From the UHGV virus genome UHGV-1373641: DNA of 64,000 nucleotides, one strand, 5' to 3'. The translations under genes and the position numbers were made by a program. This DNA comes from a virus. Below are positions 4,401-56,541 of the stretch, in pieces (position 1 is the first letter of the stretch; each line of letters starts with the position of its first letter). Under the pieces are notes generated by a model. It was not told where the DNA came from. It was given only the letters and a program-made list of their open reading frames with translations, and did not search any database.

Positions 4401-6670
4401 CCTTGCTTCCAGTTATTTGTCCACGTAGTAATGCCGGGAAAATCGATTTCTTGAATATCCGTAGCATTGTTTTTATCAAATCCGTCCGCATAGCAAAAAT
4501 CCTCCGATTGCAAGAAATTATTTTCACTATTAACAAATTTGATTCTAAGAGCATGAGGGACGTTAGGAAAAAGTTTCTCCATGCTGAATCCCCAACTATT
4601 ACGCTGGTTGAATTGCTGCACAGGAGTTTTATTCTTATCGTCAATCACCACACCATATTTTCCATCTATTTCTGTGGTTACGGAAGCACGCGCTGCCGCA
4701 GCGATCTGAGTAAGACGTGACCACAGATTCTCTTCTGTATCACAAACAAAATCGAAAGTCCACCCCATTCGGGTACAATACTTATGAAACTCACGTAGCG
4801 TTGGTTCGTCAAGCTTGTCTTCCGTATAAGGAGAATTTAAAGCATGACGGGATGTCAATACATACCTATAAGCAGATGCAGGATTTCTCGTCTCCCTCCA
4901 TTCCCACGTATTATTGCTAGTATTAAAGTCTGGAATCAGTGCCGTGCAAATAGCATTAAAGTTATCGACGTATCCAGAAAGCTGTTCCGATGCCTGAATA
5001 CGCAATTCAGAAACACATACGGGAACAGGAGTTGAAAAAGATTGACGATTTACAATAGCCCTTTTCGTCGCCCACGTAGCTTCATCATAGATATACTTAT
5101 TTGAATTATCATCAGTAAGTCTTCGAATACGAACATCATAATCTCCGTGAGGAACATTCACAGTATAGGTACGGGTCAAGGGCTTTAATTGCTGTCCAGT
5201 GATGGCAAATTTGTTAATGCCATTCACATATTGGTCAGGAATGACAATTTCATAAGTCGAATAATCATAAACTTCGACGCAAGTATAACTCCAATAAGGA
5301 CTACCTAATCCATATCCGCATTTTTTCGTATAATGTTTTACTTCATTAATATACGGAGCGGCACCGGACACAGAACTTACCCGCAAGTCTTCGCAAGTAT
5401 ATGAATATGTATATGTTACCCGCTGTCTTCCATCATCATCAAATTCATAATGAGGAGTTGATACAAGAATAACTTTTGCTAATGGAACGGTATTAACTGG
5501 AGCTGTTTCTCCATCAGCCATATTGATATTACCAGAAAAATCACTATAGACAATAGAGTTTCTTCCGGCGTTTAAATAAAAGCCAGTTTTTCTTTTAAGC
5601 TCGATAGATGTCCCACGAATAGGGAATGACCCTCCGACAAGTCCTTTCCATACCGTATCATTCTTTAATTTATATTCAGCTTCAAACTCAACGGTACGAT
5701 CATAGTTATCTCCATTTTTCTCATTGATGGAAGTCAGCCCTTTGGAGAATGTGATGTCTAAGCTGATTGTATCGCATTCTCCCATTGTCCGAGTAATATA
5801 TCCAGCTTCTTTCGAGATTAAAGTCCCCACGGTTTCTTCATTAAAGGATTTGCCAAAATAGACAAGCCCTTCACCAGTGGTAGAAGGATGGAATCTGTGG
5901 TCAATATTTTTAAAGTTTTCTAAAGGCGTATCCCCAATTTTAAAATCTCTTACGGACATATCTGGGTGCCCCCAGATAACGCACATATTGAAATAGGTTT
6001 TATCCGATTCAATATTCGTCCAAGATTTCGCTGCCAAAGGAGGAGTGACCTTATTCCTTCCGAAGATAAGAGGAACAAAACCATATGGGTTCGCTCCGTT
6101 TCTTGCCCCGGAAATAGAATAGGTAGGAGATTCTTTTTCGGAAGATTTAGGTCCGCTAAGTTTAGGCGTTGCAGGAGGGCAAAGCATATTGACAGCGAGT
6201 GAGCCAACCGTTAAGATACCAAAACTTACTGCGGCACCAGTCCAAGTCAAGGCTCCCGCCGCTGTCATCAACCCCCATGAAGCCGGAGCAAGTACGGGCA
6301 CTGCGATAGCAGCGACAGCTACAACAATGTTAAGGATTGTAGCAAAAGGATTTTTACCGCCACCTTTACCGGGCTTAATGAAAAATTCGACACGCTGACC
6401 ATCCGCAGGATAAGTAACAGCCCATTTTTCTTTAGGGATATTGATAAAATCCACACGGCAAACACAATGCTTCTTTAGATATTCGGCATATGCGGGAGTA
6501 ATAGCTTGGTTAGCCCGAAGAATTTTTACGGAGTCTGTGATGATGTTTTCAAGGGATTGTCCTTCTTGGACTGTGAGCGAGACACGAGACGAACTTGCCC
6601 AATGCCGACCAAGAACTGTGATTTCCCCTCTTTTACGAGAGGCTCGCTTTTTCATTGCTTTACCGCGCAT
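1427..6670 (-). CDS. Host specificity / central tail fibre protein (lambda gpI-gpJ-like fusion) with repeated FN3/Ig-like beta domains
   Basis: 1747 aa. N-terminal region has a gpI-like hydrophobic segment (AVAAIAVPVLAPASWGL). The middle is a long beta-rich region with repeated ~90-aa modules. Position is immediately after the NlpC/P60 K-like protein, in lambda tail tip order M-L-K-I-J. Confidence 0.8.
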   Translation of the reverse strand: MRGKAMKKRASRKRGEITVLGRHWASSSRVSLTVQEGQSLENIITDSVKILRANQAITPAYAEYLKKHCVCRVDFINIPKEKWAVTYPADGQRVEFFIKPGKGGGKNPFATILNIVVAVAAIAVPVLAPASWGLMTAAGALTWTGAAVSFGILTVGSLAVNMLCPPATPKLSGPKSSEKESPTYSISGARNGANPYGFVPLIFGRNKVTPPLAAKSWTNIESDKTYFNMCVIWGHPDMSVRDFKIGDTPLENFKNIDHRFHPSTTGEGLVYFGKSFNEETVGTLISKEAGYITRTMGECDTISLDITFSKGLTSINEKNGDNYDRTVEFEAEYKLKNDTVWKGLVGGSFPIRGTSIELKRKTGFYLNAGRNSIVYSDFSGNINMADGETAPVNTVPLAKVILVSTPHYEFDDDGRQRVTYTYSYTCEDLRVSSVSGAAPYINEVKHYTKKCGYGLGSPYWSYTCVEVYDYSTYEIVIPDQYVNGINKFAITGQQLKPLTRTYTVNVPHGDYDVRIRRLTDDNSNKYIYDEATWATKRAIVNRQSFSTPVPVCVSELRIQASEQLSGYVDNFNAICTALIPDFNTSNNTWEWRETRNPASAYRYVLTSRHALNSPYTEDKLDEPTLREFHKYCTRMGWTFDFVCDTEENLWSRLTQIAAAARASVTTEIDGKYGVVIDDKNKTPVQQFNQRNSWGFSMEKLFPNVPHALRIKFVNSENNFLQSEDFCYADGFDKNNATDIQEIDFPGITTWTNNWKQGRYHLASQLLRPLSVTINADWEHRMCHRGDVIEIFHDVLMNTFGAARVVGLIYQDTEGTEYIIYENSERPIDTPAVGVVLDDSIVFSERDVIYGIAIRNPYGKTVTYQIQPQFGEEHSHIYFTFAITYATTPYIGDLASVSLMGEANDKYLVTQIAPAENSSAEIKAIPYSPEVLDADKGEIPPWNPPIIIDKLPTYTIPNPTITQIISDESMLVKIGQNIIPQVGIWFKVGDGTSLDCVVYARAKKTQEAAWGNTVRTSVSEGYVVISNMESGELYDLSIQVTDPVRGISSDWITQTGYFVIGKTAPPPDVDGVTAELLPPSGVKISWNPVATLDIDYYAVQGDITGKTIDTSIILPVPNKFGTLNMTVSAVDTLGNFSLNPAPVSVTIQKPKNPVIKTEVTIDGLKLSWTDCTTSWPIKNYEVHDEYMSRTEFSNVTSIYVSPRPVGRYKFTVKAIDIFGNESNAVPTFIEVDLLGRVQPTARIDGADILLEWPITPSAFPIDEFEIVEGDFTPVGRAKVNYFRVPAGAVGFHEWKIRARDIVGNYGDWGEVSIEIKAAAAPTVKATIQEDKILISWVAPSTINLPITEYEIENSTTGESFGRINATQIVVPPEKTGNHIFRVRSWDTGGNAGAWGQTSFRVEAPGRVYITPTVIDNNALLVWTEPSTVFFPIHHYEVLRGDELEYAELIFNVNALIVNIFEAVSGNYTYWVVPVDVAGNKGAASPITCVISQPPDYVLFYDWDSVFSGTRHNFILDGVGGMIGPIVNENETWAQNIARFGGTTAASTWKNKVDIAGPTWMEPAGSEGWYQEEFDYGQIMQSIRLVVTPTIQVLSGTPLYSIKIEYKIDKSDPWELATENATQVFLQRFRYIRFTLSMLPGSKGLIRVSELNLKFDVKIRNDSGVALAEANTNGPEWPENKDDTGNLVNFSMPFLDIWEVTAAPESEDAGLVALVSFQDIPSPKFFRVSLFNNKGVRTTGNVVWKAVGI

Positions 6671-27758: not shown

Positions 27759-28880
27759 TTATGCTTTAAAGTTATATACTGGCTTAATAGTGAACAAGGC
27801 TTCCACCGATTGAAGATTGTTACGAATCTCTGATCCATCCTTGTATGCCATAGGGCTTTCGTCAAGAGTAGAAGTATTTACGCAAGAAGAATAAATACCT
27901 TCCATTTCATTTTTAAAATCATTCATATCAAGACTGCGCTTGGCTTCACCTCTGCTTAGTCTACGTCCAGCTCCATGAGGTGCGGAATAGTTCCAATCTT
28001 CAAGCCCTTTACCAAAACCAAAAATAATACCGTCTCTCATATTCAAAGGGATCATAAGAGCCTGTTCTTTTTTAGCGGAAACGGCTCCCTTGCGCAGCAT
28101 GAACACATCATTGTCAATACGTTCTATATAGTTATGAACGGTTTCATAAACATCATCTTTCTTAATCCCAATGTGTAGCATGATATCGTTAATGATCGCC
28201 TCACGATTCAAAGAGGCATAATATTTCATGATTTCCATATCATACATATATTCATCGAACATCTCCCCTGAAAGATACGCTAGATGTTTGGGGGTGCCCG
28301 GACATTCTTTAATAGCGACATTTTGATAATAAGTAGCTACTTCTTTTCCAATATTCCTAGAACCAGAATGTACGGTAAGGAAATAAGAAAAAGTACCATC
28401 GAAATTATCGGATTCCCCTATTTCAATAAAATGATTCCCTCCCCCCAAAGTCCCAATACTGTGCTCCGCACGAGCGATATTAACTTCATTACGACACGCA
28501 AGCATATTCAAATTGATGGCGCTAACCAATTCATGCTTGTCGTTACGAATATTAAATCCTGCGGGAATATGCTTTCGAATAATTCGATCAATTTCTTCAA
28601 AAAAGCTATTGTTAAGTTTATCGTCCAAAGTAAATTCACAGGAAAGTAATCCACAACCTATATCGACTCCGACAAGATTAGGAACGATTTTCTTGTTTTC
28701 GATAGTCATCGTCGTTCCAATAACGCATCCAGCGCCAGCATGTACATCTGGCATAATGCGAATCCTACTACCTTCGGTGAACTCTTGATTACACAATTCG
28801 ATAATTTGAGCCATAGCTGTCGGCTCAACATAATCCGTGAAAACCTTAGCTGTACTTACTGAGCCTTTTACTTCAAACAT
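27759..28880 (-). CDS. rtcB: RtcB family 3'-phosphate RNA ligase
   Basis: Motifs MPDVHAGAGCVIGTT, GGGNHFIE and HGAGR. 373 aa. Confidence 0.85.
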   Translation of the reverse strand: MFEVKGSVSTAKVFTDYVEPTAMAQIIELCNQEFTEGSRIRIMPDVHAGAGCVIGTTMTIENKKIVPNLVGVDIGCGLLSCEFTLDDKLNNSFFEEIDRIIRKHIPAGFNIRNDKHELVSAINLNMLACRNEVNIARAEHSIGTLGGGNHFIEIGESDNFDGTFSYFLTVHSGSRNIGKEVATYYQNVAIKECPGTPKHLAYLSGEMFDEYMYDMEIMKYYASLNREAIINDIMLHIGIKKDDVYETVHNYIERIDNDVFMLRKGAVSAKKEQALMIPLNMRDGIIFGFGKGLEDWNYSAPHGAGRRLSRGEAKRSLDMNDFKNEMEGIYSSCVNTSTLDESPMAYKDGSEIRNNLQSVEALFTIKPVYNFKA

Positions 28881-53759: not shown

Positions 53760-53849
53760 TGGCGGACAAGGTAGGATTCGAACCCACGGACGCTCCTGCG
53801 CCAACGGTTTTCAAGACCGCCCCAATAAGCCTGACTCTGGCACCTGTCC
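53760..53849 (-). tRNA. tRNA-Ser (anticodon UGA), class II with long variable arm
   Basis: Cloverleaf folds. Anticodon arm CGGTCTTGAAAACCG. TTCGAAT T-loop. CCA encoded. Confidence 0.8.
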
Positions 53850-53864
53850 TGTTTTTAATTCTTC

Positions 53865-53941
53865 TGGCTGTGGGAGACGGGATTGAACCGCCAACACCTT
53901 GATTAACAGTCAAGTGTTCTACCAAACTGAACTATCCCACA
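53865..53941 (-). tRNA. tRNA-Asn (anticodon GUU)
   Basis: Cloverleaf folds. Anticodon loop CTGTTAA. CCA encoded. Confidence 0.8.
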
Positions 53942-53950
53942 ATATTTTTT

Positions 53951-54027
53951 GGTACTACCGATGGGATTCGAACCCAATACTGTAGGGTTTTTAAGACCCT
54001 TGCCTCTACCTGTTGGGCTACGATAGT
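53951..54027 (-). tRNA. tRNA with anticodon UAA (Leu by anticodon) but short class I variable loop
   Basis: Acceptor ACTATCG/CGGTAGT. Anticodon arm AGGGT-CTTAAAA-ACCCT. Variable loop only ~5-6 nt. CCA encoded. Confidence 0.6.
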
Positions 54028-54031
54028 ATGA

Positions 54032-54107
54032 TGGTAGACCCGATAGGACTCGAACCTATAACTTCCCGGTTATGAGCCGGATCTTCTGCCAATTGAAGTA
54101 CGAGTCC
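54032..54107 (-). tRNA. tRNA-Met or Ile2 (anticodon CAU)
   Basis: Cloverleaf folds. Anticodon loop CTCATAA. CCA encoded. Confidence 0.75.
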
Positions 54108-54244
54108 ATTAAAAATTTTGATTATGGGAGACGCAATAAAGGAGGAAATTGCGTCTCCCGATTCGAGGAGCAAACGTATGAATGAATTGATGGAAACCTT
54201 ATACTAAACTTAAATCAGAATGTCAAGAACTTTTTTAATAGTTT

Positions 54245-54511
54245 TTAAGGTCGTTCGATCATACTGGGAACAAGTGTTGCGGAATAAATGATTTTTTCTT
54301 CATCCGGGCCATCCTCGTTCTCAACGAAGGCTTCAAATTCGATCTTACTGACACTAAAAAGGACAGTAATAGCGTCAATCTTGTCGCCTTTCTTAAAATC
54401 GCCAATATCCATGTTCAAAGTGCAATCATAAAACACAAAGTCGAAAGTGTCAAGCTGATCCCAACCTTCACAAGAAAACATTCTTTCAAAGAAATCAGTG
54501 CTCGTGTCCAT
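54245..54511 (-). CDS. Small acidic hypothetical protein embedded in the tRNA cluster
   Basis: 88-aa ORF. Confidence 0.3.
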   Translation of the reverse strand: MDTSTDFFERMFSCEGWDQLDTFDFVFYDCTLNMDIGDFKKGDKIDAITVLFSVSKIEFEAFVENEDGPDEEKIIYSATLVPSMIERP

Positions 54512-54537
54512 CTATGGATCTCCTTTTTATAGATTTA

Positions 54538-54614
54538 TGGTGCGACCGATGGGGCTTGAACCCATAACTTGCCAATTAAAAGTCGGCTACTCTTGCCAAT
54601 TGAGTTACGGTCGC
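54538..54614 (-). tRNA. tRNA-Lys (anticodon UUU)
   Basis: Acceptor GCGACCG/CGGTCGC. Anticodon loop CTTTTAA. CCA encoded. Confidence 0.8.
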
Positions 54615-54619
54615 ATGGA

Positions 54620-54688
54620 GTGTGGGAAGCGGGATTGAACCGCCAACATATACCTTTGTATTGTTCTACCAAATTGAACTACCCCACA
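54620..54688 (-). ncRNA. tRNA-like element (Asn-tRNA-related acceptor, D and T arms) with the anticodon arm replaced by a 12-nt mini-hairpin; candidate Y-RNA-like tRNA mimic or tRNA pseudogene
   Basis: Acceptor TGTGGGG/TCCCACA. D arm GTTC-AATTTGGTA-GAAC. T arm GGCGG-TTCAATC-CCGCT. Anticodon region is ATACAAAGGTAT (4-bp stem, 4-nt loop). No encoded CCA. Lies 10 nt 3' of the Ro60-like gene on the same strand. Confidence 0.5.
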
Positions 54689-54701
54689 CACACATCAATT
54701 T

Positions 54702-56222
54702 TTATCTGATACGAGCATACCTTTCCGAGCCAAGGATGTCAAGCATAACTTCGATAGGTTTTTTGTTTTGTACTGCCATCTTGAACGCAGAAGGCGACAG
54801 ACCGGAAACTATCGTTGCTCCCACCTCATCTTTCTGGACAGGAAGATTTCTTCCTCGACTATTCACATTCCAGAATACGATGGTAGGCAGCGAGTATCCA
54901 TGTGCTCGGAAAGATTCTTTCATGTATTCAAAAGCTGTCTTCGAATAGTCCGTAGATTCATTAAACTCCATATCGGAAATGATATACAGAGTTTCCGGAA
55001 GGTCTTCTTGCTTCAATTTATGCCTCATGGCGGTGGAGAGAATCAAAGAAAACACAGCTTCAATGTTCGTGCCATAGCCCCAATTGGCGGAAACCATGTT
55101 CGAGAGTTTTTCTCGCATCGTATTTCCGTAGATTTTTACAAGCTCCGGTTCGGTACTGAAAGTAAAGAAATGGTCTTTGAACGGGCCTTTGCTTCTTTCA
55201 GCGAAATACAATCCAAGAGAAATAGCCACGTCAAGAGCCGTGACACTTGAAGATTTGGATACTCGGGACAGCATAGAGCCACTGGTATCTACTACGCAAA
55301 TAGCATTTTTGTTTCGACCAGTATAGTCCGGCAACGCTCTCCACATTTCATCGTAGATATCTTCATATTCCTCTCCGTCCCGCTGAACACCATAAACAAT
55401 GTCGTAGGGGTAAAGAACGCTCGAATTTACCTTTTTCTTGCCGCGTTTAACAGCTTCGGTATATTCTGAAAAACCAAAAGGGTCATTTCTTGTAAATGCC
55501 TTTGTGTGTTTCATCAAAGCATAGGAAGGGAGCTTGCTATAATCAATGTCGCTCCATTTTTTCGAGCACATTTCCTGTTCGACAATATTCAGATGCTTTC
55601 GGATATTTACGATGGTCTTGCGGCATTTCTTCTCGTTCCCATCGAAAATATCGTCCACAAGTTTCTTTGCGAGGTTTTTTCTCCATTGAGAGGACACACT
55701 GTTCTTTAGCGGAAACCATTTCGCGCAAAGAGTCAGATTTTCGTAATGTCCGAGATTGATTTTACCTTCATCGAGGTCGAGAATCGTTTTCACGAAATTA
55801 ACCATAAAATCATATATGGATTCGTTACTCGGATAGATAGCCTCCATAATCCAGAAAAAATCATCCCATCTGCCATATTTGGGGATTTGTCCGATGTTAT
55901 AGATGATATCGTTTCGGTCGTCAGTATAACCGTTTTTGATAATATCATACAACATACAGACCCTAAAAATGTCCCTTTCACCCTGTCCGCCGCGAACATC
56001 ACGCAGATAGAAGAGGTTTTTCCTTGCCAAACTCTTATTTTCTTCTAATGCTTCCTCAAAAAGCTCCTTCGCGGAATTGAGGGAGTCTCGTTTAGCGGAG
56101 GCCAATGCGAAAAAGTTCAGATTGGCATTATCGGAATCAGAATAGGTAAGGCATCCGTTTTCCGTAACAGAATTAAGATTTTTGTTAAATGCCGAAATAA
56201 AAGGCGAAATTTTCGTACTCAT
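54702..56222 (-). CDS. Ro60/TROVE-like protein with C-terminal vWA domain (DUF2828-like)
   Basis: 506 aa. MIDAS VVDTSGSMLSRVSKSSSVTALDVAISLGLYF and later TLYIISDMEFNES align from memory with human Ro60 AVDVSASMNQRVLGS... and DVFIVFTDNET. N-terminal ~300 aa helical (TROVE-like). Confidence 0.5.
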   Translation of the reverse strand: MSTKISPFISAFNKNLNSVTENGCLTYSDSDNANLNFFALASAKRDSLNSAKELFEEALEENKSLARKNLFYLRDVRGGQGERDIFRVCMLYDIIKNGYTDDRNDIIYNIGQIPKYGRWDDFFWIMEAIYPSNESIYDFMVNFVKTILDLDEGKINLGHYENLTLCAKWFPLKNSVSSQWRKNLAKKLVDDIFDGNEKKCRKTIVNIRKHLNIVEQEMCSKKWSDIDYSKLPSYALMKHTKAFTRNDPFGFSEYTEAVKRGKKKVNSSVLYPYDIVYGVQRDGEEYEDIYDEMWRALPDYTGRNKNAICVVDTSGSMLSRVSKSSSVTALDVAISLGLYFAERSKGPFKDHFFTFSTEPELVKIYGNTMREKLSNMVSANWGYGTNIEAVFSLILSTAMRHKLKQEDLPETLYIISDMEFNESTDYSKTAFEYMKESFRAHGYSLPTIVFWNVNSRGRNLPVQKDEVGATIVSGLSPSAFKMAVQNKKPIEVMLDILGSERYARIR

Positions 56223-56480
56223 AATTTTTTCTCCAAGGTTCTGCGTCCTTTGGGGACGCTACTTCCAGTATGAATGTTGTGTTGTTGCTGTGAGAACCTT
56301 TATTTAAATAACTAGGTGCTTTTACATTATTGCTTAACAGGCAAGTGTAATTTTTGTTGCTGTGAGCACCTAAATGATTATGAGCTGTGTATGAGTTTTA
56401 ACTAGATGCCGTTTTAAATAATCATAGTATTTAACTTTAATATGCTGTCTGCATCTGCTCATTCGCTCATCGTGAAAAGG

Positions 56481-56509
56481 AATATAGTTAAACTTTTTTG
56501 ATTTGTCAA
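56481..56509 (-). promoter_or_regulatory. Sigma70-like promoter driving the Ro60-like gene and the tRNA cluster, with ~250-nt structured leader
   Basis: Minus strand TTGACA (plus 56504..56509) - 17 - TATATT (plus 56481..56486). Confidence 0.4.
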
Positions 56510-56541
56510 CTACTTTTTTAAAATATTTTTAAATTATTGGT

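Follow-up and report, generated by a model that had tools for sequence, protein, structure and literature searches.

Which RNA is the partner of a phage protein with the fold of Ro60, and what would a particle made of the two do? The question is raised by a stretch of 64,000 nt from the virus genome UHGV-1373641 (hereafter the window), in which the gene for a Ro-like protein of 506 amino acids (aa) is found at 54702..56222, all the features of the locus being located on the minus strand. Work on Ro60 and its Y RNAs has been confined to a few bacteria and to animals, and their role is still debated. A nucleotide search of the GenBank phages with the locus gave no match, and PolA is about 28% identical to its best phage matches, so that this is a phage without a close cultured relative. 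An earlier interpretation, made from the letters alone (the sequence-only reading), proposed that a tRNA-like element lying 3' of the gene is a Y-RNA-type partner of the protein. The comparison described here points to another RNA: a motif consisting of a hairpin and the box ACAGCAA, carried in the 5' leader of the gene, is on sequence evidence most likely the RNA partner, rather than the tRNA-like element, and this motif and the genes of the protein family, DUF2828, are linked in both directions. Labels of the type L001 designate the loci compared; six of the close relatives, those in which the tRNA-like element was compared, show 95-98% protein identity.

The open reading frame (ORF) contains VVDTSGSM, and Pfam assigns to it DUF7788 over aa 306-487 (4.8e-49; 167 bits against a cut-off of 27.1) and DUF2828 (5.2e-28; 98.5 bits against 29), together with a weak VWA_2 match. 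Membership of DUF2828/DUF7788 is thus above the family thresholds and covers the full length of the protein. PHROG 850 ('RNA-binding protein') matches aa 13-503 at 2.1e-138, and PADLOC and NCBIfam gave no match for the protein. The MIDAS residues D312-S314-S316...T385...D417 are invariant across 66 homologues, in agreement with the Ro60-type vWA/MIDAS domain that had been recognised in the sequence. The N-terminal region had been called TROVE-like, and here structure and sequence profiles give different answers. TROVE (PF05731) showed no Pfam match to the protein at E <= 1, and Ro60 was not found among the PDB sequences either by phmmer or by a profile made from the 66 sequences. On the other hand, the AlphaFold2 model obtained with the 66 homologues as input has a predicted local distance difference test score (pLDDT) of 92.5 and a predicted template modelling score (pTM) of 0.91, and the six best PDB matches retrieved with it by Foldseek are all Ro60/TROVE structures. 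In the model a ring (HEAT-repeat/TROVE) is followed by the vWA domain. Judged from this predicted structure, the protein belongs to the Ro60 family as a distant structural relative and would work like Ro60, even if TROVE is not recognised at the level of sequence.

The family to which the protein is here added was already known and annotated. DUF2828 homologues with 30-39% identity are present in 709 GenBank phage records, among them Felix O1-like phages, Listeria P100-like phages, cluster L mycobacteriophages, Campylobacter Fletchervirus and KVP40-like vibriophages, and more than 7,000 metagenomic homologues were found. In the cluster L mycobacteriophages the homologues already bear the annotation 'Ro-like RNA binding protein'. 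The sole experimental note found on the family is that overexpression of LeBron gp53 is moderately toxic (PMC13148394), and the literature on DUF2828, DUF7788, PF11443 and PHROG 850 yielded no functional study and no description of an RNA partner.

A candidate partner RNA was first recognised in phages other than that of the window. The starting clue came from 'undetermined' or 'pseudo' tRNAs of 110-117 nt annotated beside the DUF2828 gene in Synechococcus phage B23 (L010:4363-4472), Citrobacter phage Ci1 (L016:4385-4499 and 4506-4619) and Aeromonas phage 4_4572 (L015:3-119), each on the strand of the gene. When tRNA bodies were then sought by their T arm, D arm and 7-bp acceptor stem, 555 raw matches were obtained against 2 in shuffled sequence, and about 85 more RNAs of this kind were located in L024-L098, again on the gene strand and in 1-5 tandem copies adjoining DUF2828. 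These insert-bearing RNAs are 104-147 nt long and have normal tRNA ends, with an insert of about 40-55 nt in the anticodon arm, or 38-54 nt when counted as the hairpin + ACAGCAA insert of the anticodon stem; some are labelled 'tRNA-Undet' or 'tRNA-Pseudo' in GenBank. Within the insert an A-rich run is followed by a hairpin with a stem of 5-7 bp, whose 5' strand ends in CUU or CUA plus G, then by 2-3 nt and by the box ACAGCAA, for which the variants CUGCAA and CAGCAU also occur. The hairpin covaries strongly: when 37 modules were aligned by MAFFT without regard to structure, 86.7% of the cells proved to be paired, compared with 58.9% after shuffling and 30-49% when slid; double changes are found at 7/7 pairs, and the covariation score was reached in 0/500 shuffles. 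In Rfam the insert-bearing RNAs match no family except the tRNA model, and the literature, including that on phage tRNA introns with RtcB, yielded no description of them. The motif and its settings appear to be new.

An actinophage version of the motif (Faith1, and also L054, L040, L055 and L084) comprises 2-3 ACAGCAA modules, an anticodon-like hairpin and a T arm; in Faith1 this array lies directly 3' of the 'Ro-like RNA binding protein' gene, at L008:5465-5687, in a non-coding gap 3' of gp55 that is annotated as empty, and its hairpin contains CUGUUAA. In Escherichia phage wV8, a module with the 3' half of a tRNA is found inside a tRNA array (L007:6308-6438; 37.8 bits with the model R1 described below); this module overlaps the hypothetical ORF gp48 on the opposite strand, and the gp48 call may be spurious.

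Two covariance models were used to follow the motif, R1 for the whole tRNA-embedded element and R2 for the module alone. Going from gene to RNA, 80 diverse IMG/VR loci (35-44% identity) were searched. R1 gave 88 matches of 52-106 bits, all on the gene strand and often 2-5 in tandem, in 37 of the 80 loci, whereas ordinary tRNAs reach at most 48 bits under this model. R2 was applied to the 62 loci lacking a strong R1 match (43 other IMG/VR loci and 19 GenBank, close-relative or contig loci), where it found 46 matches at E <= 1. On the gene strand lie 43 of these 46, all of them from about -560 to +900 nt relative to the gene and typically as a pair in the 5' leader. With the 22 loci added by R2, the motif is carried by 59 of the 80. 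In the opposite direction, from RNA to gene, the pattern ACAGCAATT...GGTTCGANTCC, in full ACAGCAATTN{18,45}GGTTCGANTCC, was found in at least 120 viral stretches; among the matches listed, 51 had a DUF2828 ORF, which was on the strand of the pattern in 51/51 cases and at a median distance of 287 nt. A control pattern with a scrambled 9-mer found 31 stretches, with DUF2828 in 1. R2 gave three weak matches in the 30 control loci without DUF2828, and the lone DUF2828-positive control stretch proved to contain two strong R2 matches (31.7 and 31.0 bits) directly 5' of the gene.

In the window the motif is found in the leader of the Ro-like gene. A sigma-70-like promoter, TTGACA-17-TATATT (56481..56509; 11 of 12 consensus matches), lies about 258 nt 5' of the ATG and is unchanged in 7/7 close relatives. 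It would place the start of the transcript near 56474 and defines a leader of about 252 nt (56223..56474) without any minus-strand ORF of 40 aa or more, which folds better than its shuffles (z = -3.07). The promoter and the structured leader of some 250 nt had been noticed from the letters, and the same region (56223..56480) had been named as a second candidate RNA; it indeed holds a conserved non-coding motif RNA attached to the gene. Module 1 (56356..56409) has a 7-bp stem formed by GCAUCUA (56409-56403) and UAGGUGC (56372-56366) around a variable loop of 30 nt, followed by UC and ACAGCAA (56363-56357). It is read as GCAUCUA...UAGGUGC-UC-ACAGCAAC, the stem strands and ACAGCAAC being conserved across the relatives, and its R2 match (56400-56352; 13.5 bits) is the third best in the window. 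Module 2 (56280..56325) is formed by GCACCUA (56319-56313), AAGGUUC, UC and ACAGCAA (56291-56285), read as GCACCUA...AAGGUUC-UC-ACAGCAAC; its R2 match (56325-56280; 18.0 bits, E 0.07) is the top one of the 128 kb searched (both strands, filters off), and one column of it varies among the 7 relatives. Both matches are located 58-178 nt 5' of the ATG, the typical position of the motif, so that the stem, the CUU/CUA + G ending, the box, the gene strand and the distance from the gene all agree with the motif as seen elsewhere. R1 found only ordinary tRNAs in the window (38 bits or less), which means that it holds no complete insert-bearing tRNA.

Conservation follows the same elements. The motif region of the leader (alignment columns 160-300) is the best-conserved non-coding stretch among the 7 close relatives, about 5 of its 140 columns being variable, whereas the first 60 nt or so of the leader and the loop of module 1 contain many substitutions and indels. 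Constant stems and boxes with a variable loop are the pattern expected of a selected stem and box. Between the two modules there is a hairpin (56322..56350) with an Asn-type anticodon loop, UUACA-CUUGC-[CUGUUAA]-GCAA-UAA-UGUAA, which is invariant in the relatives and resembles the anticodon arm of the phage tRNA-Asn (CUUGA-CUGUUAA-UCAAG). A CUGUUAA loop 3' of ACAGCAA is also present in L028 and in mycobacteriophage Faith1. A further ACAGCA copy in the leader, near 56447, was dropped as it is not conserved in the relatives.

The leader also contains a half-site at the ribosome-binding site. The strand just before the last ACAGCAA, AAGGUUCU (56300-56293), is complementary to AGAACCUU (56242-56235), an unpaired 5'-type strand lying directly 5' of the ribosome-binding site GGAG (56234-56231; the two together at 56231..56242), 12 nt before the ATG. 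In the minimum-energy fold AAGGUUCU/AGAACCUU is the closing stem, of 8 bp (z = -3.69), and in L001 an A-to-G change leaves the pair as G-U. The arrangement recurs in unrelated phages: of 18 leader-type loci, 17 have, 6-50 nt before the next ATG, a strand that is the best partner for the one just 5' of the last ACAGCAA and that ends in CUU, CUA, CCU or CUC plus G. Because the strands within one leader are near-copies of each other, two pairing registers are possible. One of them leaves the flank of the ribosome-binding site free, whereas the other locks it in the 8-bp stem; in the window, the locking register consists of two perfect stems of 7-8 bp, UAGGUGC/GCACCUA and AAGGUUCU/AGAACCUU. By its sequence the leader has the layout of a translational operator, through which the Ro-like protein may regulate its own synthesis.

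The explanation given the highest probability, somewhat better than even, is that the Ro-fold protein has the hairpin and ACAGCAA as its cognate RNA operator or partner and that the resulting particle probably acts on tRNA. The protein would bind the motif sites of the leader and would feed back on its own translation, build an RNA-protein particle on the leader, or both. In other phages the motif, grafted into the anticodon stem of tRNA bodies, would give a tRNA-shaped partner RNA. The particle would most likely act on tRNA in surveillance, protection or repair during infection, or it may serve as a decoy, and phage RNA ligases (RtcB in the window phage) would work alongside it.

Several results weigh against this explanation. 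No motif was found within 3 kb at E <= 1 in 21 of the 80 loci, and among cultured phages Listeria LP-124, Bacillus FADO, Vibrio ValKK3 and Fusobacterium FNU3 also show none. The R2 matches of the leader are individually weak (18.0 and 13.5 bits), because the loops are enlarged. Shuffling tests of the ribosome-binding-site pairing, made locus by locus, were only moderately significant, the case for this pairing coming from its recurrence and from the shared strand ending rather than from single loci. RtcB is not adjacent to the Ro-like gene in the window phage. Besides, co-location is linkage and not a proof that the protein is the ligand, since another factor could read the motif.

The tRNA-like element that had been proposed as partner is real. 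It is 74 nt long (54616..54689), begins 12 nt past the stop codon, encodes CCA and ends 1 nt short of tRNA-Lys. As the sequence-only reading described, it stands 3' of the gene on the same strand with acceptor, D and T arms intact and a mini-hairpin instead of the anticodon arm: the Rfam tRNA model (RF00005) matches it at 54621..54688 with 33.8 bits, over the gathering score of 29. The anticodon arm has collapsed to a 4-bp stem with a 4-nt loop (4-bp stem and 5-nt loop in the relatives) and falls short of the standard 5-bp stem and 7-nt loop. The minimum-energy fold is cloverleaf-like (z = -1.84). When it is aligned with the tRNA-Asn of the same phage, its variable loop and its three other arms (acceptor, D and T) are near-identical, a mini-hairpin of 12-14 nt occupying the place of the 17-nt anticodon arm. 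It is rated as a non-decoding paralogue of tRNA-Asn whose candidate link to the Ro-like protein is unproven, and it would be processed along with the tRNA array. ARAGORN leaves it uncalled in the window and forces it into a 'tRNA-Phe (AAA)' in three relatives (L001:4534-4609, L002:2470-2545 and L006:4533-4608), a tRNA that probably does not exist; the register of that call has a perfect 7-bp acceptor stem, U73 and CCA. A (TG)n run at 54690-54701, just 5' of the element, differs in length among the close relatives (alignment A1, columns 22-27).

Is this element then a relic? That it is a decaying duplicate of tRNA-Asn without a function of its own has somewhat less than an even chance, and this would be compatible with the motif being the RNA partner. 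The near-identity to tRNA-Asn outside the anticodon arm suggests such an origin, and so does the variability: 13% of its columns vary among the close relatives, close to the 15-17% of the spacers, while true tRNAs show 0-10% and tRNA-Lys 0%. Its central region has indels among the relatives. In L003 a D-stem pair of the element is broken; the anticodon loop of tRNA-Asn in this locus also bears a 1-nt deletion (L003:3381-3456), and these changes may reflect decay or an assembly error. What decay does not account for is that the element is kept in 6/6 close relatives, that is, with acceptor arm, T arm and CCA retained in 7/7 genomes, and that the T-stem substitutions keep the pairing. Its position also argues for some role, as an RNase P cut there would set the 3' end of the mRNA.

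The proposal that the element is itself a Y-RNA or YrlA-type partner, in a Ro/Y-RNA particle working with RtcB, is unlikely. It would be in accord with the position of the element against the gene, with its retention in the 6 close relatives, with the preserved T-stem pairing and with a change from A-U to G-C, through G-U, in the mini-hairpin. Besides, unrelated tRNA-likes without an anticodon arm occur 268 nt past the DUF2828 gene in L096 and L098, even if they are rare in distant loci overall, and YrlA RNAs are known to mimic tRNA (PMC4201824). However, the single compensatory change is ambiguous because in the relatives a competing helix, formed by the D loop UUUGGUA and UACCAAA, is an alternative to the mini-hairpin, and the spacer-like variability given above also speaks against a partner. 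From end to end the element reads acceptor, D, mini-hairpin, T, acceptor, as a normal tRNA does; this is not the permuted order of YrlA, whose terminal Ro-binding stem is missing. The covariance models of Y RNA and YrlA gave no match in the 64-kb window at E <= 1, so that the identity suggested for the element or the leader finds no backing. Rfam recognised nothing but tRNAs at its gathering thresholds, and lowering them to E <= 10 for the locus and E <= 1 for the window brought in chance matches alone, all under threshold. The only YrlA match, of 19.8 bits, obtained in the locus scan at E <= 10, is spurious: it straddles the junction of tRNA-Leu and tRNA-Asn and lies far under the gathering score of 69 (RF02553). 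Finally, the ACAGCAA motif, which tracks the protein family, is not present in the element, and the leader-type loci of other phages have no such element.

As a separate observation, the leader hairpin at 56322-56350 is an Asn-type anticodon arm without a tRNA body, and the element at 54616-54689 is a tRNA-Asn body without an anticodon arm, so that both resemble complementary halves of one insert-bearing tRNA-Asn. A bipartite RNA or pairing in trans between the two was considered and rejected, as inspection by eye revealed complementarity only within the local hairpin.

A different view of the insert-bearing RNAs, to which a still smaller probability is given, treats the motif as an intervening sequence: once the module is recognised by the Ro-like protein, an endonuclease and a phage ligase (RtcB or Rnl) would excise it and reseal the tRNA. 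Interrupted precursors could not decode and might resist nucleases, the Ro-like ring excising the module or gating the tRNA, and the copies in leaders would be derived operators, an autoregulatory echo of the inserts. This view is encouraged by the removal of the inserts in silico, after which 37 of 56 elements again have an anticodon stem of 5 bp, nearly all with canonical loops (U33 and a purine at 37), compared with about 9% expected by chance; the restored identities are many, including Asn (7 elements), Gly, Thr, Leu, Pro, Lys, Arg and others. An Asn-type anticodon arm is retained across the divergent elements of L045, L046 and L047. An RNA ligase is also tied as the commonest neighbour of the gene, RtcB being present in the window phage and beside the gene in LP-124. 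Nevertheless, there is no consistent link to an endonuclease, and the elements showed neither a bulge-helix-bulge nor a self-splicing fold and matched no ribozyme family. The site of insertion is not constant, lying after positions 26 to 31, and in about a quarter of the elements the loop is not restorable, U33 being lost. Several phages (L045 and L046 for Asn, L039 and L041 for Pro) also encode an uninterrupted tRNA with the anticodon in question, and the leader copies have no tRNA body to splice. If true, this explanation would mean a new kind of protein-dependent tRNA intron or of conditional tRNA activation.

Equally improbable is that some other factor, such as a host RNase, a small ligand or an antitermination factor, reads the motif as a cis-regulatory or processing signal controlling the gene and the nearby tRNAs: the layout of the motif, a hairpin and a linear box, is like that of nut-like or operator sites, and the leader position with alternative pairing at the ribosome-binding site would suit any riboregulator, but the motif tracks DUF2828 across unrelated phages and hosts (Campylobacter, Mycobacterium, cyanophage, Aeromonas and gut phages), which tells against a host-specific factor, occurs on the gene strand 5' and 3' of the gene and within tRNA bodies, and is essentially missing from viral tRNA regions without a DUF2828 gene.

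The reading of the motif as the cognate RNA of the Ro-like protein can be compared with known systems. Phage Ro60 proteins of the TROVE type pair with Y-like RNAs encoded beside their gene (PMC4201824, PMC12135203, PMC7824862), and that of Thermus phage phiLo binds Y-like RNAs encoded 5' of its gene (PMC12135203). The window system resembles Ro60/Rsr with its Y RNAs, as in the cluster C mycobacteriophages and in phiLo (Yrl1/Yrl2), in the same two-domain ring of HEAT repeats and vWA/MIDAS, in a non-coding RNA (here a candidate partner) beside the gene and on its strand, and in the tie to tRNA mimicry and RNA ligases (PMC4201824, PMC12135203, PMC7824862). It differs in that the window protein has no sequence-level TROVE match, in that the Y RNAs present a bulged helix whereas the DUF2828-linked RNA presents a hairpin and ACAGCAA, and in that the window carries its motif in an mRNA leader, a half-site adjoining the ribosome-binding site. 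The survey of YrlA published in 2014 began from proteins annotated as TROVE (PMC4201824), and for this reason DUF2828 proteins and their phages would have fallen outside it.

The relationship with YrlA itself is closest for the insert-bearing RNAs. In YrlA (RF02553) the order is T arm, closed acceptor-like hairpin and D arm, the Ro-binding stem being formed by the two ends. Both kinds of RNA have a tRNA-like body and a module, which in the insert-bearing RNAs projects at the position of the anticodon stem; YrlA is a circular permutation lacking an anticodon loop, whereas the insert-bearing RNAs show normal topology, an open acceptor stem, often CCA and usually an anticodon-like loop. By analogy, they can be read as the counterpart of YrlA without its permutation, the tRNA body bearing a candidate protein-binding module. 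Permuted elements are also found in the family. Enterococcus phage EA1 has three YrlA-like copies (L017:821-921, 1928-2021 and 2100-2221), in which the acceptor hairpin is closed and has 7 bp; the best reach 45.9-47.8 bits (E about 1e-8 to 1e-7). Sinorhizobium phage phiN3 has one (L018:1044-1146; 35.9 bits). All these elements, significant but with 28-48 bits under the gathering score of 69, are located just 5' of DUF2828 genes. Together with the unpermuted counterpart they suggest that the window protein would work like a Ro/Y-RNA system, neither RNA of the window being a member of YrlA. In the EA1 copies the D arm is followed by AACGUAUAAAAUA..CUUGUU, which resembles the start of an ACAGCAA-type insert.

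As an operator, the leader recalls those of T4 RegA, gp32, the MS2 coat protein and the ribosomal proteins, in that copies of the RNA presumed to be the target of the protein stand in the leader of its own gene and one overlaps the ribosome-binding region. The window leader differs in being an array of interchangeable strands with two pairing registers, which is unusual, and repression would here be a deduction from its layout. The comparison with the Salmonella rsr-yrlBA-rtcBA operon holds in part: a Ro-type protein, a tRNA-like RNA and RtcB are encoded in one genome, but the phage has neither RtcA, RtcR nor the operon. The RtcB-family RNA ligase that had been noticed is present at 27759..28880 (Pfam RtcB 4.8e-56; NCBIfam matches to the RtcB family are under the curated cut-offs), on the strand of the Ro-like gene; it is located 26 kb away from it, so the adjacency of an Rsr-RtcB operon is not seen.

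The remainder of the locus is a tRNA array (53760..54614) whose tRNAs all encode CCA and in which ARAGORN, Rfam and the ORF list confirmed the order read from the sequence: tRNA-Lys-UUU (54538-54614), an ORF of 88 aa (54245..54511), tRNA-Met/Ile2-CAU (54032-54107), tRNA-Leu-UAA (53950-54027), tRNA-Asn-GUU (53865-53941) and tRNA-Ser-UGA (53760-53849). The 'UAA tRNA' of the sequence-only reading exists, and it is an ordinary tRNA-Leu(UAA). The 88-aa ORF, between tRNA-Lys and tRNA-Met, is acidic and conserved in the relatives (9.7% of the columns variable), and has no Pfam or NCBIfam match. Extra promoter-like sites are present at 54742-54714 and 54453-54425, and another one was located by eye at about 54229-54201. 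In view of these sites, the transcription of the whole cluster from one promoter, as proposed by the sequence-only reading, is no more than a possibility. The last site, TTGACA-17-TATAAG, is followed on its 3' side by a perfect 12-bp hairpin, GGGAGACGCAAU..AUUGCGUCUCCC (54121-54160, minus strand), just 5' of tRNA-Met, and the spacer that holds the hairpin balloons from 137 nt to 557 alignment columns across the relatives.

The same surroundings are found in the family as a whole. DUF2828 genes are embedded in phage tRNA arrays and near RNA ligases, which agrees with the context of tRNA and RNA repair suggested earlier for the locus. Within 3 kb of the gene, tRNAs were found in 37 of the 80 IMG/VR loci, and in 36 they share its strand; of these tRNAs, about 290 altogether, only four are on the opposite one. 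In wV8, which is Felix O1-like, the gene stands at the head of an array of 19 tRNAs; in Bacillus phage FADO 17 tRNAs precede it; and in Listeria phage LP-124 tRNAs lie 5' of it and RtcB 1.3 kb 3'. In the flanks of L007-L102 the commonest neighbours on the same strand are the RNA ligase PF09414 and an HNH protein, tied with 10 loci each. They are followed by an unassigned 243-aa family with metallophosphoesterase-like motifs (9 loci), by two families without assignment and a class-V aminotransferase, cysteine-desulfurase-like (8 loci each), and by Band-7/SPFH (6). A macro domain occurs once, in phiN3, and NADAR/DUF1768 is found near DUF2828 in L102 and LP-124.

DUF2828 proteins are far commoner in phages than Ro proteins of the TROVE type, and they have had no described RNA partner. 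The motif attached to their genes, which occurs in three settings (in leaders, 3' of the gene and within tRNA bodies), explains why phage annotation contains 'undetermined' or 'pseudo' tRNAs of 104-147 nt, and it links Ro-like proteins with tRNA more closely than did the mimicry by YrlA. With about 35 nt and a covarying stem, it offers a handle for binding, structural and genetic work in cultured phages, in which the Ro-like protein may prove to act on tRNA during infection.

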